Below the pieces are notes generated by a model, which was not told where the DNA came from, did not search any database, and was given only the letters and a program-made list of their open reading frames with translations. This document shows positions 8,555 to 62,451 of a stretch of 64,000 nucleotides of DNA, piece by piece; position 1 is the stretch's first letter, and every line of letters begins with the position of its first letter. The position numbers and the translations under genes are program-made. This stretch comes from Parcubacteria group bacterium (GTDB lineage Bacteria; Patescibacteriota; Minisyncoccia; Moranbacterales; UBA2206). The stretch is from contig JBAZUU010000004.1 in the NCBI GenBank assembly GCA_041661275.1, forward strand, positions 7,480-71,479, in the 5' to 3' direction.

Positions 8555-9331
8555 ATGCCCACAAATAAACATTTTAGAGATATAAAAACTGGATTTTGCT
8601 TTCTTGATGAAACCGGACTCATTCATAGTGAACAGGATAGATTTTTTGCTCTGGGAATAATAAAATGTAATGATCCACAAAAATTATATAACAGGATAAG
8701 AAAGGTAAGAAGCAGATATAGATATGGCTAAGAACTAAAATGGTCTAATCTTGATCGAAAAATACGCTTTGATATAGCCAGAGAATTTGTTAATATATTT
8801 CTAACAGAGGACGCGAAATTTAATTGTATCATTCTTGATAAAAGTGAACTGGATTTTGAAAAATATTACGACAATAATCTATATAAAGTTTATAGGAATT
8901 TCACTATAGCTCTTTTGAAGTTAATTATCGGAAATAATCCTCAGGAAGTCCTAGTTGTTTTGGCTGATGATTATTTTTCTCCCGACGGAACCGACTTGGA
9001 AATTACGATTAAAAAATTCATTAATGATCACTATAAAAGGTTTGTTGTTGCTGGTGTATGTCAGATAAATTCCAAATGTTCAGATATTTTACAATTAACA
9101 GACTTACTTCTCGGAGCTATAGCCTATGATTTGAAAAAACAAAATAAACTAATAAAAAGGCAGACTGAATATAAAAGAAAATTTTTGAACTTTTTATATC
9201 AAAAACTGAAAATAAAAAAATCTTTTTTCAAAAATGGATTCGGTTTTAATACGAGAAATTATGTTCTGTCGGGAGATAAAATTAGAGCAACCATTTTTGA
9301 TTACCGCAGATCCAAGAGGAGGCGAAAATAA
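8555..9331 (+). pseudogene. DUF3800-family gene disrupted by frame changes and in-frame stops
   Basis: N-terminal part GFCFLDETG in frame 2 ends at TAA 8705; the middle segment ELKWSNLDRK... is in frame 1 (8731-8886); the C-terminal part ...CQINSKCSDILQLTDLLLGAIAY (DUF3800 DSKxSxxLQLADLLAGA-like motif) is back in frame 2 (8882-9331). Confidence 0.5.
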
Positions 9332-12900: not shown

Positions 12901-13422
12901 GACGGAGTAACGGAAACTCAAATAAAGGAAGAATTGAAAAAGGCCGATTTGCCAGAATCCGGAAAAGTGAAACTGATAAACGGACGAACTGGTGAATATT
13001 TTGCCAACCCAGCTACAGTGGGAGTCATGTATGTCATGAAACTTCACCACCTGGTTGATGACAAGATTCACATGCGTTCTATTGGTCCATATTCTCTCAT
13101 TACCCAGCAACCTCTTGGTGGAAAAGCGCAGTTTGGCGGTCAGCGGTTCGGAGAAATGGAAGTATGGGCGCTTGAAGGTTATGGCGCTGCTTATACTTTA
13201 CAGGAAATGCTGACGATAAAATCCGATGATGTGATGGGACGTTCGAAAGCTTATGAATCAATCATCAAGGGAGAAATGATAAAGAGTCCTAATATCCCGG
13301 CATCTTTCCATGTGTTGGTTTCAGAATTAAAAGGACTTGGTCTTAATGTTGAGCTGATGGGAGAACAGAAAGTCAGAAATGAAAATGACATTGAACCAGA
13401 TGAAGATGTGACCCAGGCTTAA
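9985..13422 (+). CDS. rpoB: DNA-directed RNA polymerase subunit beta
   Basis: 1145-aa ORF with conserved RpoB blocks (KRKFF..., GDFPLMTDRGTFIINGVERVVVSQ, GPGGLTRERAGFEVRDVH, NMQRQAV). The exact start is ambiguous between 9985 and 10003. Confidence 0.95.
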   Translation: MWHKTFMLKVDKKLKVKSTFGAQSSLAKRKFFKPMLMVSLPNLIEAQINSYDWLLEEGIKELFEEVNPIKDFTEKDLELSLKDYYLDDPKYDEVTAKSKNISYEAPLRAKVQLVIKKTGEIKEQEIYLGDFPLMTDRGTFIINGVERVVVSQIIRSPGVFFTMDYQKGRKLFGAKIIPNRGAWLEMETDLDGAISVKIDRKRKVPITSLLRAFGYSTDKELVDLFADVNKGEVNHIEATIAKDTAKNQGEGYKEVYKRIRPGDLATESNAKSVIDSMFFNFEKYDFGSVGRYRLNQRLELDKPDDEAHRVLTREDLILIIKEIIKLNNNPMAVADDIDHLGNRRVRSIGELVQNKLRVGLARTARNIKDRMSTCDITIVVPGQLVNSRPIAASIKEFFSSSQLSQFMDQVNPLAELEHKRRISAMGPGGLTRERAGFEVRDVHNSHYGRICPVETPEGPNIGLVGHLATYTKINEYGFLETPYLKIYHEVENKEEVLLNKILDEAVAGGKPGTMIDEKLAKAIVKEKSKKTIKIRPWVSHEIDYINATVEDRKSITHAGVPMDEHGNILAEAVGARVKGRTTEIETKKLDYIDVSAKQCISVATSLIPFLEHDDANRALMGSNMQRQAVSCVKPEAPVVGTGIEDKAAADSGQVVIAKMDGEIVEVDSDHVVVKEAAPAGAKKPYIKREYRLQSFVKSNAFTSMNQIPRVKKGDVVKKGQLLADGASTDHGELALGQNILVAFIPWEGFNYEDAIIISEKLVQDDRYSSIHIEDFSIDVRDTKLGPEIVTRDIPNIGEERLKNLDETGIIRIGAEVTSGDILVGKISPKGEGDLTSEERLLRAIFGEKSRDVKDSSLYLPHGEYGKVVDIKIFSREQGDKLSTGVIQQIQVSVAQLKKISVGDKLAGRHGNKGVISKVAPVEDMPHLADGTPVDMILNPLGVASRMNIGQILETHLGWAAWKLGYKAATPALDGVTETQIKEELKKADLPESGKVKLINGRTGEYFANPATVGVMYVMKLHHLVDDKIHMRSIGPYSLITQQPLGGKAQFGGQRFGEMEVWALEGYGAAYTLQEMLTIKSDDVMGRSKAYESIIKGEMIKSPNIPASFHVLVSELKGLGLNVELMGEQKVRNENDIEPDEDVTQA

Positions 13423-16400: not shown

Positions 16401-17047
16401 CAGTTGTCAGTGAAATCGACGGGAAGGTTTTGGAAATTGAAAATGTCGACAAAAATATTATTGTCAAAATTGAAGCGACTGACAAAAACAAGACAATCAA
16501 AGAATATCAACTTCCAGCTGGAACAACGGTCAAGGTGGCCACTGGTGATTTGGTCGGAAAGGGATCGCAACTCAATGAAGGTCACATCGATCTTAAAAAA
16601 TATTATAAGATCACTGGCTGGGAAGAAGTTTGTCGCTATATCATTCGGGAAATTCAGGAAGTGTATGCATCACAAGGTGAAGGTATCAACGACAAACATA
16701 TTGAAATTATCATTCGTCAGATGTTTTCTCGCATTAATATTTTGACCGAAGGCGATAGTAATTTCTTGGTTGGCGACATCACAGAAATAGACGAATTTAA
16801 TGAAGAAAACACTCGCGTCAAAGAGCGAAATGGCGAAATGGCCAAAGGTGAAAAAATGCTTCTTGGAATCACCAAAGTGGCTCTTTCCACTGAAAGTTTC
16901 CTCTCTGCGGCGTCTTTCATGGAAACCGCCCGCGTGCTCATCAATGCGGCTGTTGCCGGCAAAGAAGACAAGCTGCGCGGTCTCAAAGAAAACGTCATCA
17001 TCGGAAAACTTATTCCAGCAGGGACAGGGTTTCGGAATATAAAGTAG
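13457..17047 (+). CDS. rpoC: DNA-directed RNA polymerase subunit beta'
   Basis: 1196 aa; zinc-binding CYCGKYKRIRYKGIVCDKCGVEV, catalytic NADFDGDQMAVH, and a conserved C-terminus. Confidence 0.95.
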   Translation: MESISNTKISDFDSVRLKLASPEEILTWSHGEVTKPETINYRTQRYEKDGLFDERIFGPSRDWECYCGKYKRIRYKGIVCDKCGVEVTRSIVRRERMGHIKLATPVSHIWFLRGVPSKIGLALGMGVQDLERVIYFSSYIVHNVDEEQRERVMNQLDTEFKTKQKEIAKNFGANEKELKEKTEELKGAYKTLKDELKSLHRLKIISEVEYFNLSTRFGQVFTAGIGAESIRKILEGIDLKKEVDTLKKELLKEEVSDKKKILKRIKLFKGFINAGLHLEWMLPIAIPVIPPDLRPMVALDGGRFATSDLNDLYRRIINRNNRLKKLIEIGAPEVITRNEKRMLQEAVDALFDNSARRSQVSVAASTGQRRALRSLADTLKGKQGRFRQNLLGKRVDYSGRSVIVVGPKLKLHQCGIPKKMGLELFKPFIINKLIERELAYNVRSAGKMVEAEAEEAYDILDEIISHHYVLLNRAPTLHRLSIQAFQPVLIEGKAIQIHPMVCSAFNADFDGDQMAVHVPLTDKARWESGNLMLSAKNLLKPASGDPITTPTLDMVLGCYYITHISPNAKGEGKMFSTYEEAIMACELGHVDIRAKIKVLHDNEVLETSIGRIKLNLIMPEGFEYINHEMTKKELKVLVARVLELKGQEEAAQFVDRIKDLGFESVTNSGISWGMDDLIVPAGKKDIMIEAEKQVETVKKQYNMGLLTEEERKDKVIEIWNDSKNKITDLVRAGMDKEGPVYSMVYSKARGSESVVVQMSGMKGLMAGPTGETIELPVKSSFKEGLNVLEYFISTHGARKGMADTALRTATAGYLTRRLVDVAQDVIVREKDCHDKNGAFMYKEDSDRIGQSFAARIIGRVLLEDAVDPKTGEVVAAKGDMISKIQGEQIEKANMDKLKVRSIITCKTARGVCQKCYGMDLGRGHLVEIGQAVGIVAAQAIGEPGTQLTMRTFHIGGVAGTDITQGLPRVEEIFEARPPKGESVVSEIDGKVLEIENVDKNIIVKIEATDKNKTIKEYQLPAGTTVKVATGDLVGKGSQLNEGHIDLKKYYKITGWEEVCRYIIREIQEVYASQGEGINDKHIEIIIRQMFSRINILTEGDSNFLVGDITEIDEFNEENTRVKERNGEMAKGEKMLLGITKVALSTESFLSAASFMETARVLINAAVAGKEDKLRGLKENVIIGKLIPAGTGFRNIK
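16989..17047 (+). repeat. 59-bp direct repeat, copy 1 (the last 17 codons plus stop of rpoC)
   Basis: identical to 18326-18384: aaaacgtcatcatcggaaaacttattccagcagggacagggtttcggaatataaagtag. Confidence 0.9.
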
Positions 17048-17084
17048 ATTTTAGCTGTTAGCTTATAGCTTTTAGGATAGAAAA

Positions 17085-17184: not shown

Positions 17185-18318
17185 ATGAATTATATCCCAA
17201 GATTAATAACAAGTTCCATAGAAAATCGCTTATTTAAGGGAAAAGTCATAATTATCTATGGTGCCAGACAAGTTGGAAAGACCACTTTGGTCAAGAAAAT
17301 TTTAGAAAAATACAGTTCAAGTGGCGATTATTTGAACTGTGAGTTATTATCCGTCCGAAAAGGGCTTTCGGAACCGGAAGCGGTCAAGTTGAAAAAGTTT
17401 CTTGGAAATTATAAAATCATTGTTCTGGATGAAGCTCAAAACATTCCCAATATTGGATTAATTCTCAAAATAATTGTAGATACTTACCCAGAACTGCAGA
17501 TTATTGCTACCGGCTCATCCAGTTTTGATTTAGCGCAAAAAATTTCCGAACCCATGACAGGAAGAACCTTTACTTTTATGCTTTATCCAATTTCGTTAAG
17601 AGAAATTAGACAAAAAGAAAATTTAATCGAAGTAGAGGCAAAACTGGAAAGTTTGTTAAGATTTGGAAGTTACCCGGAAATACTGACTCTAAGTGAAGGT
17701 GAATCCAAGGAGCGTCTCAACGAAATCGCGTCCAAATATTTATATAAAGATATTTTAAGTTTCGAAGGTCTTAAGAAGGCTGATGTTATAAGAAATCTTC
17801 TGGAACTTTTGGCTCTTCAGTTGGGCAATGAAGTTTCTTATAATGAATTGGCCACAAAACTTGGAATTGATCGGTTAACCGTTCTAAAATATATAAATAT
17901 CTTGGAACAATCATTTGTTGTTTTTCGTCTAAGGGCTTTCAGTCGAAATCTTCGAAAAGAGATATCCAAATCGGTTAAAATATATTTTTATGATTTGGGC
18001 GTCAGAAACAGTATAATTGAAAGCTATAACCGGCTAGATGTAAGAAACGACACTGGAGCGTTGTGGGAAAATTTTTGTATCGTGGAAAGAAAGAAAAATA
18101 ACGAAAGCGATTTCCGATTTGTGAATTCATATTTTTGGCGCACATATGATCAAAAAGAAATTGATTATATCGAAGAAAAAGACGGCCAACTTCGTGGATT
18201 TGAATTTAAATGGAACGCGAAAAAGGACATAAAATTACCAAAAGAGTTTATAAAAAGCTACAACGCGACGGTGGAAAAAGTTGATCCGGAAAATTATTGG
18301 AAGTTTTTGAAACTATAA
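17185..18318 (+). CDS. AAA+ ATPase with a C-terminal DUF4143 domain
   Basis: Walker A GARQVGKTT; Walker B IVLDEAQ; C-terminal region typical of DUF4143 proteins. Confidence 0.75.
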   Translation: MNYIPRLITSSIENRLFKGKVIIIYGARQVGKTTLVKKILEKYSSSGDYLNCELLSVRKGLSEPEAVKLKKFLGNYKIIVLDEAQNIPNIGLILKIIVDTYPELQIIATGSSSFDLAQKISEPMTGRTFTFMLYPISLREIRQKENLIEVEAKLESLLRFGSYPEILTLSEGESKERLNEIASKYLYKDILSFEGLKKADVIRNLLELLALQLGNEVSYNELATKLGIDRLTVLKYINILEQSFVVFRLRAFSRNLRKEISKSVKIYFYDLGVRNSIIESYNRLDVRNDTGALWENFCIVERKKNNESDFRFVNSYFWRTYDQKEIDYIEEKDGQLRGFEFKWNAKKDIKLPKEFIKSYNATVEKVDPENYWKFLKL

Positions 18319-18325
18319 CGCGCAA

Positions 18326-18384
18326 AAAACGTCATCATCGGAAAACTTATTCCAGCAGGGACAGGGTTTCGGAATATAAAGTAG
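18326..18384 (+). repeat. 59-bp direct repeat, copy 2 (a non-coding duplicate of the rpoC 3' end)
   Basis: exact copy of 16989-17047; followed by its own hairpin/T-run at 18386-18416. Confidence 0.9.
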
Positions 18385-18460
18385 CTTTTATGGAAAAAAC
18401 GACTTGGCTTATCGTCAGGTCGTTTTTGTTTTGTAGAGTAGTAGTTGACTACAATTCCTT

Positions 18461-18877
18461 ATGATGATACTATATCACTATAAAAACAAAATAATGAAAA
18501 AAGATTTTGTAAAGTGGCAATTAGAAAAAGAAATAATAAATAGCCGAAATAGAGAAATATATTTTCGCGAAAGGCAAATATGGTGGTGTAGCATCGGACT
18601 CAATATTGGTTATGAGCAGGATGGTAAAAATGAACGATTTGAACGCCCGGTTTTGATTTTGAAAAAGTTTAGTAAGGATTTATTTTGGGCTTTGCCAACC
18701 ACCAGCCAAAATAAAACAGGAGCCTATTATTACCAATATAACTATAACGGCAGAAAATACTCCATAATACTTTCGCAATTACGAGCATTGAGTAGTAAGC
18801 GATTATTGAGAAAAATAAGAAAACTGCGGGAAGACGACTTCGAAAAAGTAAAAACTTCCGTAAGAAGTTTGATATAA
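18461..18877 (+). CDS. MazF/PemK-family endoribonuclease toxin-like protein with no adjacent antitoxin
   Basis: RQIWWCSIGLNIGYEQDGKNERFERPVLIL matches the MazF/EndoA block (IYW.DL.P..G.EQ.G.RPVLI); the probable true start is ATG 18494; no antitoxin ORF in the 76-bp upstream gap. Confidence 0.5.
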   Translation: MMILYHYKNKIMKKDFVKWQLEKEIINSRNREIYFRERQIWWCSIGLNIGYEQDGKNERFERPVLILKKFSKDLFWALPTTSQNKTGAYYYQYNYNGRKYSIILSQLRALSSKRLLRKIRKLREDDFEKVKTSVRSLI

Positions 18878-25586: not shown

Positions 25587-25589
25587 AAA

Positions 25590-25735
25590 GCGGTTGAATA
25601 GAAAATGGAAATTGGTTCAAGAGAATGGAAATTAGAAAACAGTAAATCCAACTTCTATTTTCTATTTTTCCAGAACTTATTTCTATTTTCCAATCAACTA
25701 ATTTCTAGTGGGGGAGTTGCCAAGTTTTTACATTA
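25590..25735. repeat. imperfect palindromic intergenic element (family F; related copy at 45811-45933)
   Basis: shares ttctaatttcc, gaaaatagaa and ggaaatt blocks with 45811-45933. Confidence 0.5.
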
Positions 25736-29176: not shown

Positions 29177-29184
29177 GATCGTAA

Positions 29185-29260
29185 AACGCATAACGCATAA
29201 CGCATAACGTAAAAAGCAATAATTTGCGTTCCACGCTCCATGTTCTACGCTTCGCGACTA
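29185..29260. repeat. intergenic repeat family D (cataacg x3 ... gttccacgc...ctacgc)
   Basis: shares motif blocks with 39762-39836 and 62372-62451. Confidence 0.55.
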
Positions 29261-30044: not shown

Positions 30045-30140
30045 CCATTAGTTGACAGGTATGAATATATCATTTATGATTATTCTGCTAGCCTCTGGGC
30101 GTGCTTTTTTATTAATGTTTGTAAATTAGAATAATATAAT

Positions 30141-30560
30141 ATGCCGACAATAAATCAGTTGAAAAGAAAAGCTCGGAAATCAGTGAAGAGTAAGAGTAAA
30201 ACTCCGGCTTTTAAGCATGTTTTCAATACTCTAAAAAATCGTCCAGTAGATGACAACAGCCCGTTCAAGCGCGGGGTTTGTGTCAAAGTTTCCACTACTA
30301 CTCCCAAAAAACCAAACTCGGCTCTCCGAAAGATCGCAAGAGTCCGCCTCACCAATGGAATGGAAGTCACTGCTTACATTCCTGGCATCGGACACAACCT
30401 CCAAGAACACTCAATTGTCATTATCCGCGGCGGAAGAGTAAAAGACCTTCCGGGCGTTAGATATCATATTGTTCGGGGAGTTCTCGATGCTTCCGGAGTT
30501 TCCAACAGAAAAAGAGGACGAAGTAAATATGGAGCTAAAAAGGAAAAATCTAAAGAATAA
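30141..30560 (+). CDS. rpsL: 30S ribosomal protein S12
   Basis: MPTINQL...[10 protein letters not shown]...conserved throughout. Confidence 0.95.
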
Positions 30561-30567
30561 TTGTAGT

Positions 30568-30677
30568 CTCTACGAATTACGAATTGGTACGAATGTAACG
30601 AAATACGAATAATCGTTAATAAGGACAATTTAAAAAATCAATCGTTCGTACATTCGTAAAGGTTCGTATTTCGTAGA
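30568..30677. repeat. 110-bp palindromic element of family B (tctacgaattacgaa...ttcgtatttcgtaga) between rpsL and rpsG
   Basis: long inverted repeat; near-identical copy at 43631-43742. Confidence 0.8.
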
Positions 30678-30695
30678 GAAATAATTTAAACAAAC

Positions 30696-31163
30696 ATGGC
30701 AAGACGTAAACGAATATTTGAAAAGCACGTAAAACCCGACACCAGGTACGGCAATCTTTTGGTTGGGAAGTTTATCAATAACATAATGAAGGATGGGAAG
30801 AGAACTACGGCAGAAATGATTGTTTATGGATCTTTTGATGAAATCCACAAGCGTACTAAGCGTGGAGGACTCAATGTCTTTGAGCAAGCTATCAAAAATA
30901 TTTCTCCTCTTGTCGAGCTGAAATCCCGCCGAGTTGGTGGCGCTAACTATCAAATTCCGGTTCCAGTCATCGGGGAGCGAAGAACAACTTTGGCTATTCG
31001 CTGGATAAAAGTGGCCATTTTGGCTAAAAAAGGCAAGGGGATGGCTCAAAAACTGGCCGATGAACTGATCGATGCTTCTAATAAAACCGGAGCTTCTATG
31101 AAGAAGCGAGAAGATGTGCACCGAATGGCAGACGCCAACAAGGCTTTCGCCCATTTTGCATAA
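30696..31163 (+). CDS. rpsG: 30S ribosomal protein S7
   Basis: conserved S7 sequence. Confidence 0.95.
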   Translation: MARRKRIFEKHVKPDTRYGNLLVGKFINNIMKDGKRTTAEMIVYGSFDEIHKRTKRGGLNVFEQAIKNISPLVELKSRRVGGANYQIPVPVIGERRTTLAIRWIKVAILAKKGKGMAQKLADELIDASNKTGASMKKREDVHRMADANKAFAHFA

Positions 31164-38504: not shown

Positions 38505-38565
38505 CGCGTAGCGTCATCCTGAGCGGAGTCCTGCTGAAAAGCAGGACGAAGTCGAAGGATCTAGT
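38505..38565. repeat. family A hairpin element, short form (half-unit), between rplW and rplB
   Basis: atgacgcgtagcgtcat palindrome + cgtcatcctgagcg + tcctgctgaaaagcagga hairpin + gaagtcgaaggatct. Confidence 0.8.
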
Positions 38566-39760: not shown

Positions 39761-39761
39761 A

Positions 39762-39836
39762 TCGCATAACACATAACACATAACACATAACATCGGATTC
39801 GTATTTTGTTCCATGTTACGTGCTACGGGTTACGTG
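39762..39836. repeat. intergenic repeat family D (cataacacataac x4 ... gttccatgttacgtgctacgggttacgtg) abutting the rplV start
   Basis: same block structure as 29185-29260 and 62372-62451. Confidence 0.55.
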
Positions 39837-40412: not shown

Positions 40413-40417
40413 GTTTA

Positions 40418-40508
40418 GTTAAAAAGTAAAAAGTAAAAGTTAAAAGTAAAGAAAAAATTAAACAGCTTCAAATATTTTGGACTTTTAATTTTTAACTTTT
40501 AACTTGAG
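40418..40508. repeat. AT-rich palindrome (ttaaaaagtaaaaagtaaaagttaaaagt ... acttttaatttttaacttttaa) between rplV and rpsC
   Basis: inverted repeat read directly. Confidence 0.5.
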
Positions 40509-40518
40509 CGAAGCGAAC

Positions 40519-42041: not shown

Positions 42042-42096
42042 TCGTCATCCTGAGCGAAGTCCTGCTGAAAAGCAGGATGAAGTCGAAGGATCTATA
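42032..42096. repeat. family A hairpin element, short form, between rpsQ and rplN
   Basis: tgacgacgtagtcgtca palindrome + cgtcatcctgagcgaagtcctgctgaaaagcaggatgaagtcgaaggatct; nearly identical to 38505-38565. Confidence 0.8.
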
Positions 42097-42103
42097 CAAA
42101 TAT

Positions 42104-42469
42104 ATGATACAAGCAGAATCAAAACTAGTCGTAGCTGATAATTCTGGTGCCAAGATCATCGAGTGTTTCAAGGTGCTTGGCGGTTCAAGAAGGCGATATG
42201 CTGGTCTGGGTGATGTTATCGTGGCTTCCGTAAAGTCATCAGAACCTCGCGGAACAGTCAAAAAAGGCGAGGTAGTGAAAGCGGTGATAGTGAGACAACG
42301 AAAGGAATTTAGAAGAAAAGATGGTTCATATATCCGATTTGATGAAAATGCAGCGGTAATTGTTGACGGGAAAGATCCAAAAGGAACAAGAATTTTTGGG
42401 CCTATCGCGCGAGAATTGCGAGACCGGGGATATAGCAAGATAATTTCACTCGCTCCGGAAGTATTGTAA
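42104..42469 (+). CDS. rplN: 50S ribosomal protein L14
   Basis: [17 protein letters not shown] conserved; the ORF-track ATG at 42077 lies inside the repeat element. Confidence 0.95.
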
Positions 42470-42470
42470 T

Positions 42471-42552
42471 CTTTACTAATTACTAATTTTGTAAGAATAT
42501 ACCGATTGCGAATAAAGATTAGTATATTAGTATAAGATTCGTAATTAGTAAA
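42471..42552. repeat. family C palindromic element (ctttactaattactaatt ... aattagtaaag) between rplN and rplX
   Basis: near-identical copy at 44176-44262. Confidence 0.75.
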
Positions 42553-42572
42553 GAATAATTCATATTAAATTC

Positions 42573-42875
42573 ATGAAGATAAAAAAGAACGATATCGTGA
42601 TAATGCTTTCAGGAAAAGACCGCGGAAAAACGGGCAAGGTTTTGCGAGTGGTTGAGAAAGGAAAGGTTACGGTAGAAAATTTAAATACAGTCAAAAAACA
42701 TAAACGTCCCAGACGAGAAGGAGAAAAAGGTCAGCGAGTAGAAATCCCGAGATTGGTAGATATATCAAAAGTAGCGCTTGTTTGTCCGAAATGCGGAAAA
42801 GCGACAAGGATCGGCTATAAAATTTCAGGAGAGATAAAATCAAGATTTTGTAAAAAGTGTAAGAGTGAGATATAA
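42573..42875 (+). CDS. rplX: 50S ribosomal protein L24 with a C-terminal CxxC...CxxC zinc-ribbon tail
   Basis: KOW motif MLSGKDRGKTGKV; C-terminal CPKCGK...CKKCK. Confidence 0.85.
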   Translation: MKIKKNDIVIMLSGKDRGKTGKVLRVVEKGKVTVENLNTVKKHKRPRREGEKGQRVEIPRLVDISKVALVCPKCGKATRIGYKISGEIKSRFCKKCKSEI

Positions 42876-42879
42876 AATA

Positions 42880-43422
42880 ATGGAAAATATTCGAGAAAAA
42901 TATTATAAAAAAGCCCTGCCGACAATGAAAAAAGAATTCGGGCTCAAAAATGACCTGGAAGTTCCTAGAATCACCAAGGTGGTTGTTAATACTGGAATAG
43001 GAAAATTTATCAAAGACTCTTCTTCTGTTGAGGAAATTCAAAAAGCCTTGACCGCTGTTACAGGACAAAAAGCGATAATGGTGAAAACCAGAAAGTCTAT
43101 TGCCGGATTCAAGACAAGAGCGGGACTGGAAGTGGGAGTGAAAGTGACTCTTCGTGGTCCTCGAATGTGGAGCTTTTTGGAAAAATTAGTCGGAGCTGCT
43201 ATGCCTCGCATCCGGGACTTCAGAGGAATTAAGCTGACATCAGTGGATAGCAATGGTAATTTAAACATTGGCCTCAAAGAACATACGATTTTTCCGGAAA
43301 TTTTGCCGGAGTCAGTGAAAAATATTTTCAGTTTGCAAGTGAATGTTACCACTAACGTAAGAAATAGAGATATGGGAATAGCATTATTTAGAAATTTAGG
43401 TTTTCCAATAGAGCATAAGTAA
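42880..43422 (+). CDS. rplE: 50S ribosomal protein L5
   Basis: conserved L5 sequence. Confidence 0.95.
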   Translation: MENIREKYYKKALPTMKKEFGLKNDLEVPRITKVVVNTGIGKFIKDSSSVEEIQKALTAVTGQKAIMVKTRKSIAGFKTRAGLEVGVKVTLRGPRMWSFLEKLVGAAMPRIRDFRGIKLTSVDSNGNLNIGLKEHTIFPEILPESVKNIFSLQVNVTTNVRNRDMGIALFRNLGFPIEHK

Positions 43423-43444
43423 TAAGAAATAGTTGTTAAATTTT

Positions 43445-43630
43445 ATGGCAAAGAAATCCGTAGAAGCAAGAGCAAGAAAAAAACCGAAATTCTCAACAAG
43501 AATAGTCAGGCGCTGTTGGAAGTGCGGAAGAAAACACGGTTATCTTCGTCAGTTTGACATTTGCCGGATTTGCTTTCGGGAATTAGCCAGTACCGGTCAG
43601 ATTCCGGGAGTAAAAAAGTCCTCATGGTAG
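43445..43630 (+). CDS. rpsN: 30S ribosomal protein S14 type Z (61 aa, zinc-binding)
   Basis: [20 protein letters not shown] conserved. Confidence 0.9.
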
Positions 43631-43742
43631 TCTACGAATTACGAATTAGTACGAATGTAACGAAATACGAATAGTAGTAAATGTGACAAAAGTTAAATTC
43701 AATTATTGTTCGTACATTCGTAAAGGTTCGTAATTCGTAGAC
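43631..43742. repeat. 112-bp palindromic element of family B between rpsN and rpsH
   Basis: arms identical to 30568-30677 with a different loop. Confidence 0.8.
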
Positions 43743-43769
43743 CAAGAGATTAAATTAAACTAATCAAAT

Positions 43770-44171
43770 ATGGATAAAATTGCAGAAATGCTAACATCAA
43801 TAAGGAACGCCCAGATGGCCGGGCACAAGGAAGCGAAAATAAGCGCCTCCAAGTTGAAGTTGGCCGTGGCCAAGATCCTGGAAAAAGAAGGCTTTTTAGA
43901 ATTTGCCAATGTGGAGCAGGAAAATAATTTCAATGTGATAAAGGTCGGGCTGAAATACCATACGATCTCCCGGACAAAAAGGCTGCCGGCGATAAACGGA
44001 TTGGAAAGGGTGAGTAAAGAAGGACAAAGAGTATATATAAAGAAAAAAGACATAAGAAATGTAAAAAATAATTACGGTTTAGCTATTATTTCCACTTCCA
44101 AGGGCGTAATGACCGGAGAAGAATCTAAAAAACTCGGCTTGGGAGGGGAATATATATGTAAAGTCTGGTAG
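43770..44171 (+). CDS. rpsH: 30S ribosomal protein S8
   Basis: conserved S8 sequence. Confidence 0.95.
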   Translation: MDKIAEMLTSIRNAQMAGHKEAKISASKLKLAVAKILEKEGFLEFANVEQENNFNVIKVGLKYHTISRTKRLPAINGLERVSKEGQRVYIKKKDIRNVKNNYGLAIISTSKGVMTGEESKKLGLGGEYICKVW

Positions 44172-44175
44172 TAAT

Positions 44176-44262
44176 TCTTTACTAATTACTAATTTTGTAC
44201 GAATATACCAATTACGAATAAAAAAATTAGTATATTAGTATAAGATTCGTAATTAGTAAAGA
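44176..44262. repeat. family C palindromic element between rpsH and rplF
   Basis: copy of 42471-42552. Confidence 0.75.
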
Positions 44263-44291
44263 AAGAAATTAACTAAAAATCAGGAAATTAT

Positions 44292-44849: not shown

Positions 44850-44931
44850 GATGCTAATCCACGAATAAAGGCGAATCTGCTAATCGCTAATTCGCAATTA
44901 GCGGATTAGTATATATTAGCAGATTAGCATC
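44850..44931. repeat. nested palindrome (gatgctaatc...gattagcatc) between rplF and rplR, related to family C
   Basis: perfect outer 10-bp inverted repeat and an inner ctaatcgctaatt/aattagcggattag pair; shares the gattagtatatattag core with family C. Confidence 0.65.
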
Positions 44932-45810: not shown

Positions 45811-45933
45811 TTTATTGGAAATCAAAAATTAGTTCCAGAAATTGGAAAAGGGAAAATAGAATTTCATCTTTCCAGTTTCTAATTTCCTGAACCATTTTCA
45901 AATTTCTATTAAACTATTTTCTAAAAAATAATT
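45811..45933. repeat. family F imperfect palindromic element between rpsE and rplO (where rpmD/L30 would normally sit)
   Basis: related to 25590-25735. Confidence 0.5.
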
Positions 45934-48293: not shown

Positions 48294-48436
48294 CCCGTCA
48301 TTCTGAGCGAAATGACGACGACGTTAGTCGGAGGAATGAAGTCGAAGAATCTGCCAAAAGTTAGCACTGGTGGTAATTTATAGTAGATCCTTCGACTACG
48401 TCCAATAAGAATTGGACTTCGCTCAGGATGACGTAT
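48294..48436. repeat. family A element, full-length (about 140-bp inverted duplication), between adk and map
   Basis: left arm cgtcattctgagcg...gaagtcgaagaatct; right arm agatccttcgactacgt...cgctcaggatgacg. Confidence 0.85.
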
Positions 48437-48440
48437 TATT

Positions 48441-49202: not shown

Positions 49203-49341
49203 CCGTCATTCTGAGCGGAATCGAGTCCGTTAGGACGAGATGAAGTCGAAGAATCTGCCAAAGGTTAGCACTTGTGGTAAATTATAGTAGATCCTTCGAC
49301 TACGTTCGGATAAAATCCTCACTACGCTCAGGATGACGGGA
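49203..49341. repeat. family A element, full-length
   Basis: central region nearly identical to 48294-48436 (gccaaaggttagcacttgtggtaaattatagta). Confidence 0.85.
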
Positions 49342-50380: not shown

Positions 50381-50516
50381 CACCGTCATTCCGAGCGGAA
50401 TCCGCTTTAAGCGGATGAAGTCGAAGAATCTGCTAATTAATATTACTAGTGCTATTTGTAAGTAGATCCTTCGACTTCGTTCGGATAAAATCCTCACTTC
50501 GCTCAGGATGACGGGC
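50381..50516. repeat. family A element, full-length
   Basis: same arms as the other full-length copies; loop differs. Confidence 0.85.
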
Positions 50517-51359: not shown

Positions 51360-51521
51360 AAAAGCGAGAAACCCCGCACCAAATTCCAGTATAGATTTGC
51401 TTAGTGTATAGTTGAGTGTGCGTGGTCGCCTGCGGCTTAAAATAGAAATAAAAAATAGTCTTTCGAGCGAATTGGTGCGGGGTCTCATTTTTGTAACCAC
51501 TCGCCAAGCTCGCGGACAAAA

Positions 51522-53790: not shown

Positions 53791-53914
53791 CAGGTTTAAA
53801 ATTTTTGAATTTTTAATTTTATAATTTTGTAAATAAATCCAAATTTTTAATGTTTAAACATTTGGAAATTAAAAATTATTTAAAAATTAAAAATTACAAA
53901 ATTAAAAATTTTGT
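53791..53914. repeat. AT-rich palindromic spacer between tpiA and fba, centred on gtttaaac
   Basis: inverted repeats of aaaattaaaaatt-type words. Confidence 0.5.
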
Positions 53915-55221: not shown

Positions 55222-55358
55222 CGTCGTCATTCTGAGCGGAATGAGACCTTTGGTCGAATGAAGTCGAAGAATCTACCAAATAATATTACCGGTGATAATT
55301 CCTGGTAGATCCTTCGACTACGTCCCAATAAGAATTGGGACTTCGCTCAGGATGACGG
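55222..55358. repeat. family A element, full-length, between hoxE and hoxF
   Basis: arms identical to the other copies. Confidence 0.85.
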
Positions 55359-55377
55359 TTTTTTGTTAAATTATTAA

Positions 55378-60702: not shown

Positions 60703-60834
60703 CCAACAACTGTTTTCTAGGCAGGGGAATCTCATTGGGTTTTCCCTGCTTTTTTATGATATAATAGCTTAAGTGGTTGCTAACAAACTTTTTCGCATTT
60801 TCGTACGTTCGTATTAATTTCGTAGTTCGTAACT

Positions 60835-62371: not shown

Positions 62372-62451
62372 TAGAATCGCATAACGCATAACGTAAAACG
62401 CGTAACGACAATAATCCGTTCCACGCTACGCGCTCTACGTTCCACGATAAT
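62372..62451. repeat. intergenic repeat family D abutting the gap start codon
   Basis: cgcataacgcataacg...cgtaacg...gttccacgctacgcgctctacgttccacg. Confidence 0.55.

Follow-up and report, generated by a model that had tools for sequence, protein, structure and literature searches.

Long hairpins between ribosomal-protein genes of a Moranbacteria bacterium as probable members of a dispersed palindromic repeat family

Two long hairpins, here named B1 and B2, lie in the rpsL|rpsG and rpsN|rpsH spacers of a 64,000-nucleotide stretch of DNA from a Parcubacteria group bacterium (assembly GCA_041661275.1, contig JBAZUU010000004.1, positions 7,480 to 71,479; hereafter the window), and are probably two members of a dispersed, non-coding, copy-and-paste family of palindromic repeats of the Patescibacteria. 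The family, referred to below as family B, appears to fit the functional class of the enterobacterial repetitive intergenic consensus (ERIC), repetitive extragenic palindromic (REP)/BIME and Correia-type elements, and not that of a ribosomal-protein switch. As judged from the sequence comparisons reported here, which establish the anatomy, dispersal and turnover of the family, copies are quickly gained and lost between related genomes and land in short intergenic spacers of genes of any kind. They usually span the distance from just past the upstream stop codon to just before the next native leader or start codon, and they decay through point mutations as well as deletions, the latter leaving solo arms behind. 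Mobility is favoured by orthologous sites that are mostly empty, by non-orthologous copies next to unrelated genes, by differences in occupancy and by decayed remnants.

Two heptad-armed hairpins in ribosomal-protein operons

Each arm of family B is built of repeated heptamers, TACGAAT in the left arm and ATTCGTA in the right (Table 1). An earlier note on this DNA, made from its letters alone, had placed two palindromes in the spacers between rpsL and rpsG and between rpsN and rpsH, which was borne out to within 1-2 nt. Its description of these palindromes as perfect-armed was mistaken, as the arms within each element are only 84-87% complementary: the inverted repeat of B1 pairs 30567-30597 with 30649-30679 (31 nt, 84%) and that of B2 pairs 43630-43659 with 43713-43742 (30 nt, 87%), and the stems contain a 2x2 internal loop (UUGG/AAGG), G-U pairs and one mismatch. 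The arms of the two copies, which the same note had called identical, are nearly so, with one mismatch in the 43-nt left arm and one in the 35-nt right arm (95% and 97% identity over slightly narrower arm windows); its different loops are indeed different (~51% identical), and the outer flanks are unrelated. Arm motifs of 23-24 nt each occur exactly twice in the window, where 100 shuffles gave an expectation of zero.

The left side of the family consensus reads (yy)CTACGAAT TACGAAT nnn TACGAAT nTACGAAT, followed by a variable loop, and the right side, 3' of that loop, reads ATTCGTAnATTCGTA nnn ATTCGTA ATTCGTAG(rr). Units are spaced 7, 10, 9 and 7 nt apart, elements are 65-125 nt long and loops range from ~0 to >100 nt. 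GTAG stands 5' of both B1 and B2; left flanks vary across the family, and this 5' GTAG is not family-wide. Solo arrays occur in either orientation, some of them abutting start codons.

Folding of both copies as RNA in their spacer context, a check that the earlier note had proposed, predicted for each one long imperfect hairpin, with -43.1 kcal/mol (z = -8.4) for the B1 spacer and -48.4 kcal/mol (z = -9.3) for the B2 spacer. Folded as single-stranded DNA, the two strands behave alike (-24.9 and -24.3 for B1; -26.6 and -25.4 for B2). B1 starts 6 nt past the rpsL stop codon and ends 16 nt ahead of the rpsG ATG, while B2 begins to pair at the G of TAG, the stop codon of rpsN, and ends 27 nt ahead of the rpsH ATG. 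These 27 nt (CAAGAGATTAAATTAAACTAATCAAAT) match the entire hairpin-free rpsN|rpsH spacers of relatives, for example at loci L019, L020 and L029 (...GAATCTAAATTAAAyTCAcAAAyT), so that the B2 hairpin separates the stop codon from the native leader. This A/U-rich rpsH leader, which has no obvious Shine-Dalgarno sequence, is conserved across Moranbacteria (the three loci just named, L031 and others) and may be the native initiation signal.

A strong promoter-like site upstream of rpsL implies that B1 lies within an rpsL-rpsG-fusA transcript. Taken together with the terminator scan, which found no site at B1 or B2, it would place both elements inside operon transcripts. An intrinsic terminator, defined by a G+C-rich stem with a T-tract behind it, was likewise rejected as the identity of the hairpins, as there is no T-tract and the sequence 3' of both stems is A-rich.

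Table 1. Elements of families A and B in the window, with the genes and signals flanking B1 and B2
Feature	Position in window	Strand	Basis or remark
Promoter-like site upstream of rpsL	30052..30080	+	TTGACA-17-TATGAT, 11/12 matches
rpsL (S12), 5' neighbour of B1	30141..30560	+	Pfam
B1, complete palindromic element, rpsL|rpsG spacer	30567..30679	+	Inverted-repeat finder and RNA/single-stranded DNA folding
B1 left arm	30568..30610	+	Five ACGAA-core heptads (TACGAAT TACGAAT tgg TACGAAT gtaACGAAA TACGAAT a)
B1 loop	30611..30642	+	A/T-rich
B1 right arm	30643..30677	+	Four TTCGT-core units complementary to left arm
rpsG leader, 3' of B1	30680..30695	+	Unstructured, A-rich
rpsG (S7), 3' neighbour of B1	30696..31163	+	Pfam
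Family A copy 1, fills rplN|rplX	42467..42557	+	TACTAAT/ATTAGTA mixed with TACGAAT/ATTCGTA
rpsN (zinc-ribbon type S14), 5' neighbour of B2	43445..43630	+	Pfam
B2, complete palindromic element, rpsN|rpsH spacer	43630..43742	+	Inverted-repeat finder and RNA/single-stranded DNA folding
B2 left arm	43631..43673	+	42/43 nt as in B1
B2 loop	43674..43706	+	
B2 right arm	43707..43741	+	34/35 nt as in B1
Native rpsH leader, kept 3' of B2	43743..43769	+	Matches hairpin-free relatives
rpsH (S8), 3' neighbour of B2	43770..44171	+	Pfam
Family A copy 2, fills rpsH|rplF	44175..44263	+	
Related hybrid hairpin, rplF|rplR	44850..44931	+	GCTAATC/CGAAT units
Solo right-arm-type array, abuts start of NiFe-hydrogenase large-subunit gene	60790..60834	+	TTTCGCATTTTCGTACGTTCGTATTAATTTCGTAGTTCGTAAC; no left-arm partner

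Empty orthologous spacers, turnover and dispersal

Relatives were gathered by a scan with the L3 protein of the window, keeping one genome per species, which gave 80 loci (numbered with the prefix L), most of them titled Moranbacteria (Patescibacteria, or candidate phyla radiation, CPR); the best relative was 77% identical, and orthologous spacers were placed by tblastn. The host of B1 and B2 is itself a Moranbacteria (CPR) bacterium. At rpsL|rpsG, no TACGAAT hairpin was found in any relative (0/35); 23 of these spacers are at most 54 nt long and some hold unrelated elements. At rpsN|rpsH, a full TACGAAT hairpin is found in 3 of 68 relatives (L012, L042 and L049) and only a left arm in L005, and 42 of these 68 spacers are at most 50 nt long.

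Family B does occur at other spacers of the relatives, namely at rplN|rplX (L022 and L047) and rpsH|rplF (L049), and a related ACGAAAT-type element, loop included, occupies rplN|rplX in both L005 and L006 and, in L012, rpsH|rplF instead. Heptad arrays of any such kind were seen in only 23 of the 80 relatives (~20 kb each), and the relatives' L3-to-L6 segments measure between 6650 and 8118 nt (7298 nt in the window), which together indicate a load of spacer insertions that is very uneven between genomes. The same architecture, built from unrelated heptads, is found in many genomes.

These comparisons bear directly on ribosomal-protein autoregulation, according to which S7 and/or S8 would bind the shared hairpin and repress their own genes. 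B1 occupies the position of the S7 operator in the str operon of Escherichia coli, and the gene after each of B1 and B2 encodes an rRNA-binding protein. The rRNA motifs recognised by S7 and by S8 differ, so that one identical hairpin cannot mimic both. The element is missing from rpsL|rpsG in 35 of 35 relatives and from rpsN|rpsH in 64 of 68, the family precedes >100 unrelated gene families, one copy of the same genome lies upstream of metK, and no Rfam match rises above noise. The E. coli S8 operator, moreover, overlaps the start of rplE and lies neither in the rpsN|rpsH spacer nor ahead of rpsH, and the E. coli ribosomal-protein operators are confined to Gammaproteobacteria (PMC3616713). An operator for S7 or S8 is thus hardly credible, and we reject this reading on conservation and specificity, as far as sequence comparison can tell.

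With regard to the earlier note, which saw both copies at classical operator positions, this is correct for rpsL|rpsG and incorrect for rpsN|rpsH. Its suggestion that a shared structured RNA coordinates the translation of S7 and S8 finds no support, the element being unconserved at orthologous sites, not specific to ribosomal-protein genes and without compensatory covariation or a family-wide sense bias (see below). Its other suggestion, that a mobile hairpin element has colonised the spacers, is supported by the empty sites, by the >100 neighbouring families and by a pair of genomes that are 92% identical; the comparison with relatives that it had named as the sign of mobility indeed found the orthologous spacers mostly empty.

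That pair, L005 and L006, shares 92% identity over ~15 kb, and its alignment reveals unlike hairpin content at ~8 or more spacers. A 92-nt insert at L005:6867-6958 faces an empty site in L006 that reads TAA-T-ATG, another empty site reads TAA-AT-ATG against a 66-nt insert, and the rpsH|rplF spacer measures 5 nt in one genome and 124 nt in the other. Solo arms are also present in the alignment, and deletion remnants in L006 keep just the last heptamer ('TAATTCGTAAG', 'TTAGTAGAGAA') of elements that are intact in L005. An apparent 'AAAGAATAA' duplication at L005:6867-6958 was rejected as a target-site duplication, since it is part of the right end of family A. Five further assemblies of the window genome (L201-L205) match the window at 100% identity and extend it by 17 kb; no strain-level variants were found among them.

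A wider view of the dispersal was obtained by scanning metagenomes with the pattern TACGAATTACGAATN{2,4}TACGAAT, which placed the left-arm motif on at least 120 contigs. Among the matches listed, nearly all are intergenic and mostly lie between co-directional genes; where an arm matches exactly, 32 have the same orientation and 41 the opposite one; and the neighbours comprise 108 proteins with 135 Pfam families downstream and 92 proteins with 114 Pfam families upstream, including type II/IV secretion, FtsX, glycosyltransferases, Mur ligases and NusG. In some carriers (L087 and L096), L2 and SecY share no more than 58% and 52% identity, respectively, with the proteins of any of the 80 Moranbacteria, so that family B probably extends past the Moranbacteria lineage. 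No match to the family was found in viral contigs, phage records or plasmid records, and an origin from phages or plasmids was rejected on these grounds. Twelve pairs of a solo left and a solo right arm lie 165-2489 nt apart in the analysed loci; judged from arm positions and the most frequent neighbouring protein families, they yielded no candidate for an autonomous parent element.

The genome of the window holds a third copy of family B (L203:5373-5455), ~2.2 kb upstream of window position 1. This shorter copy has a loop of 8 nt and three units in its right arm, and it is situated between divergent genes, ~30 nt ahead of the metK start on the opposite strand. No SAM riboswitch was detected in this metK upstream region by Rfam at gathering score.

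Copies within one genome align over both arms and loop and share genome-specific signatures (six copies in L049, four in L012), which indicates that whole elements are copied within genomes. Complementarity continues past the first heptamer for ~3 variable nt (78, 54 and 50%, versus 44, 33 and 32% in the control) and then falls to background. The heptads are all but missing from coding DNA (0 and 1 observed versus ~5 and ~4 expected), on which grounds an uptake-signal sequence was excluded, and they cluster in spacers (10 and 7 observed versus ~1 expected).

Within the window, the sense strand gives the better fold for each of the four family A and B hairpins, although there is no such bias family-wide, with the sense strand better in 16 and the antisense strand better in 17 cases (34 members with co-directional flanks). 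An RNA-level strand bias was accordingly rejected, the asymmetry linked to whichever arm matches the pattern being an ascertainment effect of the search pattern. At the variable position of the heptad, the pairs are G-C (95), G.A (17), G.T (11), T.C (9) and T-A (4), and compensatory covariation is not significant (Fisher p = 0.23).

Competing explanations and known repeat families

If family B is a dispersed repeat, the behaviour of B1 and B2 in their host can be sketched as follows. Their operon position and the promoter-like site suggest that both would be transcribed inside the str and spc mRNAs, where they are predicted to form imperfect hairpins whose stems have ~35-40 paired positions. 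Hairpins of this sort would loop the inserted sequence out, which may be why it is tolerated between tightly packed cistrons. Its effect would then be generic, like that of ERIC, REP and Correia elements: the upstream mRNA segment may be shielded from 3' exonucleases, the stem may be a target of double-strand ribonucleases, and translational coupling may be altered, none of which would be specific to S7 or S8. For the copying itself, the lack of a target-site duplication and the hairpin-forming ends fit a single-strand route (HUH/RAYT/IS200-IS605-like) or a recombinational, template-switch route better than a DDE transposase.

Several observations weigh against this explanation. Arms are 93-98% identical among copies and loops only 51-80% (L049, L012 and the window), and purely neutral decay of dead copies does not predict arms that are much better conserved than loops. 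Placement between stop and start codons is very regular: among 35 unambiguous cases with co-directional genes, the median distance is 3 nt from the stop codon to the start of the palindrome (at most 7 nt in 28) and 9 nt from its end to the start codon (at most 14 nt in 25). Target-site duplications are absent, direct repeats of k = 2-8 nt at the junctions of 68 elements being no more frequent than in permuted controls, and no mobilising gene was found beside any copy, a recurrent transposase being absent from the most frequent Pfam families of neighbouring proteins in the matches listed. Ribosomal-protein or adjacent operons account for ~15 of 120 loci among the matches listed, an enrichment of ~5-fold. 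Finally, carriers as divergent as L087 and L096 share the same heptad and unit spacing, and a purely selfish element with a heptad conserved between deep lineages would need horizontal spread.

The conservation of arms over loops, the regular placement, the enrichment in ribosomal-protein operons and the heptad kept across deep lineages all speak for a host-selected RNA module, that is, a hairpin acting in cis, either purely structural or read by a conserved factor such as a double-strand ribonuclease or an RNA-binding protein. Such a module would set the stability of mRNA segments or would enforce or insulate translational coupling, with a terminating ribosome opening the base of the stem and freeing the region upstream of the next start codon; dispersal would be secondary. 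The complementarity that reaches ~3 variable nt beyond the conserved core and the better folding of the sense strand in 4 of 4 window cases are also in its favour, and the folded rpsL-rpsG spacer of E. coli has been proposed as an aid to coupling (PMC3616713).

We nevertheless consider a host-selected RNA module unlikely, for presence and absence vary between genomes that are 92% identical, remnants and solo arms are found, and the element is missing at the same sites in most relatives. There is no family-wide sense bias, and most changes in the arms lack a compensating change. Proximity to stop and start codons would follow from short native spacers alone, and in a synthetic-operon screen structure directly past the stop codon correlated negatively with coupling (reviewed in PMC12548453).

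Alternatively, the inverted heptad arrays might be binding sites for a protein at the DNA level, such as transposase ends, iteron-like or nucleoid-associated sites or the target of a regulator, with hairpin potential only incidental. Conservation of the arm sequence and not of pairing alone, solo arrays in either orientation that in part abut start codons, loops of ~0 to >100 nt and the lack of strand bias would all be compatible with such sites, and the nearest published analogue, the direct repeats of the TAACTGA heptamer, has been proposed to consist of regulator sites (PMC4679880). This reading is quite improbable, given that no candidate protein was found, that the 7, 10, 9, 7 nt spacing is not helically phased, that the same architecture with unrelated heptads in many genomes would require many cognate proteins, and that the solo arrays resemble deletion remnants. 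A Zur box in particular was rejected: the arms include the Bacillus half-site TCGTAAT/ATTACGA, yet none of the sequences analysed has a contiguous 7-1-7 box.

A more speculative account, to which we would give a small though real chance, is that the heptad-array hairpin, far from being a passive transposon derivative, is a hitherto undescribed Patescibacteria-wide module with a dedicated, conserved partner protein. The hairpin may be the end structure of a new single-strand mobile system, free of target-site duplications, that targets the nucleotides after stop codons, or it may be a device adopted by the host to maintain or adjust translational coupling and mRNA processing between cistrons. 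A module of this kind would explain arm conservation (93-98%) next to loop drift, the persistence of the heptad and its spacing across class-level divergence, the span from stop to start codon and the build-up in the most highly expressed operons of otherwise streamlined genomes.

Family B appears to be undescribed in Rfam and in the searchable literature. Rfam gave no match in the whole window at gathering score, and permissive scans of both spacers returned at the elements only miRNA-precursor hairpins far below threshold (27-28 bits versus 83). The literature search found no paper with the 14-mer of the family and none on intergenic palindromes of CPR bacteria. A tRNA or tmRNA identity was excluded, as none occurs in the window. 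REP, MITE (miniature inverted-repeat transposable element, a non-autonomous derivative of DDE transposons), TIGR, attC, terminator and ribosomal-protein leader each fail to describe the family in at least one defining feature, while an ERIC-like description would suit its anatomy and context, though not its sequence or host.

Like ERIC elements (also IRU), family B consists of imperfect palindromes of ~100-130 nt in transcribed intergenic regions, intercistronic spacers included (transcription being inferred from context for family B), that occur in either orientation, are present or absent between relatives and would be expected to act generically as mRNA hairpins. It differs in its arms, which are arrays of 7-nt units, in its many solo arms, in its very unequal loop lengths and in its Patescibacteria hosts; the heptad motif and the organisms would be unrelated to the enterobacterial family.

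REP/BIME elements, which are mobilised by RAYT (Y1 transposases of IS200/IS605-like type, with genes that REPs often flank), resemble family B as extragenic palindromes just past stop codons, without target-site duplication and with genome-specific variants, and as REPs are known to stabilise mRNA at its 3' side, a similar generic effect is plausible here. REPs, however, are 20-40 nt long versus 65-125 nt for family B, and have a conserved 5' GT[AG]G, of which family B shows the GTAG before B1 and B2 but not family-wide. Correia/NEMIS elements and MITEs share with family B the short non-coding core of variable sequence, the long terminal inverted repeats, the dispersed copies and the probable co-transcription with neighbours, and Correia RNA hairpins are substrates of double-strand ribonucleases; MITEs, in contrast, make target-site duplications (TA for Correia), of which there are none at family B, family B has no known parent insertion sequence, and its inverted repeats are internally repetitive.

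The TAACTGA heptamer repeats of Beggiatoaceae, Cyanobacteria and Bacteroidetes (MacGregor 2015, PMC4679880) are likewise intergenic arrays of a specific heptamer, often few nucleotides from start codons and also in ribosomal-protein operons, with a patchy phylogenetic distribution. Their heptamer is not that of family B, and they comprise 169 direct sets versus one indirect repeat (PMC4679880), whereas family B normally forms inverted pairs that make a long hairpin. Family B fills intercistronic operon spacers from stop to start as do the MIRU repeats of mycobacteria, which are direct tandem repeats with small coupling-preserving open reading frames (ORFs) and not non-coding palindromes. The E. 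coli S7 operator shares only the intercistronic position of B1; family B differs from the S7 and S8 operators in being unconserved at its position and not specific to ribosomal proteins, and the S8 operator lies at rplE.

TIGR-Tas arrays of CPR bacteria and phages consist of tandem units with box C and box D next to a Tas (Nop-domain) gene (PMC12045711). They were rejected, since the present elements are single dispersed hairpins, with no TGATGA or CTGA in B1 or B2, ribosomal-protein genes as neighbours and no Tas gene. Integron attC sites are palindromes that end in R''/R' core sites (RYYYAAC ... GTTRRRY) and lie between mobile cassettes; these were excluded too, as the ends of the elements read CTACGAAT ... 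ATTCGTAG and their flanks are ribosomal-protein genes in conserved order.

Other spacer repeats of the window and significance

Several other repeat families contribute hairpins to about a dozen of the window's spacers. An independent assembly (L201, Logan SRR6484324) that corresponds to window positions 42526-44205 breaks exactly inside both family A hairpins, and such repeats thus fragment short-read assemblies of the ribosomal-protein operon. At L105, L199, the rpsL|rpsG spacer of L015 and window positions 44850-44931, all left units contain CGAAT and all right units ATTAG, resulting in one G.A mismatch per unit, which suggests that units are homogenised within one arm and not with the opposite arm.

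Arms composed of repeated 6-8-mers are a recurrent architecture, with unrelated sequences from case to case. Heptamer arrays of CATAACG/CATAACA, partly paired with degenerate complements, occupy three spacers (29178-29223, 39761-39792 and 62376-62407) with the architecture of family B and a different unit. Further hairpins with arms of short tandem units (GAAAATAGAA-, AAAGTTA-, AAATTTT-, TACAAAA- and ACAAATC-types) lie at 25587-25700, 40413-40518, 45811-45933 and 53791-53914 in the window and, in the same genome, at 12904-13086, 16402-16513 and 16937-17101 of L202, including nusG|rplK and rplK|rplA.

A second, multi-helix repeat family of ~135-150 nt occurs at 48294-48440, 49203-49340, 50381-50515 and 55222-55360, with short relatives at 38512-38563 and 42043-42094. 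It is bounded by CGTCATTCTGAGCG...CGCTCAGGATGACG with an inner helix GAAGTCGAAGAATC/GATCCTTCGACT, reaches -0.45 kcal/mol per nt, fills adk|map and neighbouring spacers, and has no Rfam match. A third family of ~160-220 nt ((A)TCCCGCACCAATTCC ... CGCCTGCGGCT ... GAATTGGTGCGGGAT.GCTCATTTTTG) is found before rpoA in the window (51360-51521) and fills rpsL|rpsG in L011, L030, L031 and L040, as well as rpsN|rpsH in L030.

Two regions of the window stand apart from the spacer hairpins. The last 65 nt of rpoC are duplicated at 98% identity (16989-17053 and 18326-18390) on either side of an insert (17185-18318) with an AAA_14/DUF4143 ATPase gene, followed by a gene for a PemK/MazF-like toxin (18461-18877); from its sequence, it looks like an insertion rebuilt the 3' end of rpoC. 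Positions 8732-9233 span ~500 nt without an ORF of at least 50 aa in a simple gene call, between a 58-aa ORF and a 166-aa ORF, the latter without a Pfam match.

The genomes of CPR bacteria or Patescibacteria are seen as small and streamlined, and yet the ribosomal-protein operons of the window hold about a dozen long spacer hairpins that belong to several heptad-based families and whose content differs between close relatives. Recognition of family B prevents such hairpins from being misread as riboswitch- or operator-like regulators during annotation, accounts for assembly breaks and, as the family differs between closely related genomes, offers strain markers. Very few mobile elements are known from these organisms, yet here are palindromes without target-site duplications that are placed just past stop codons. 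If the hairpins function in mRNA processing or coupling, they would provide reduced genomes with a cheap means of retuning operon stoichiometry.

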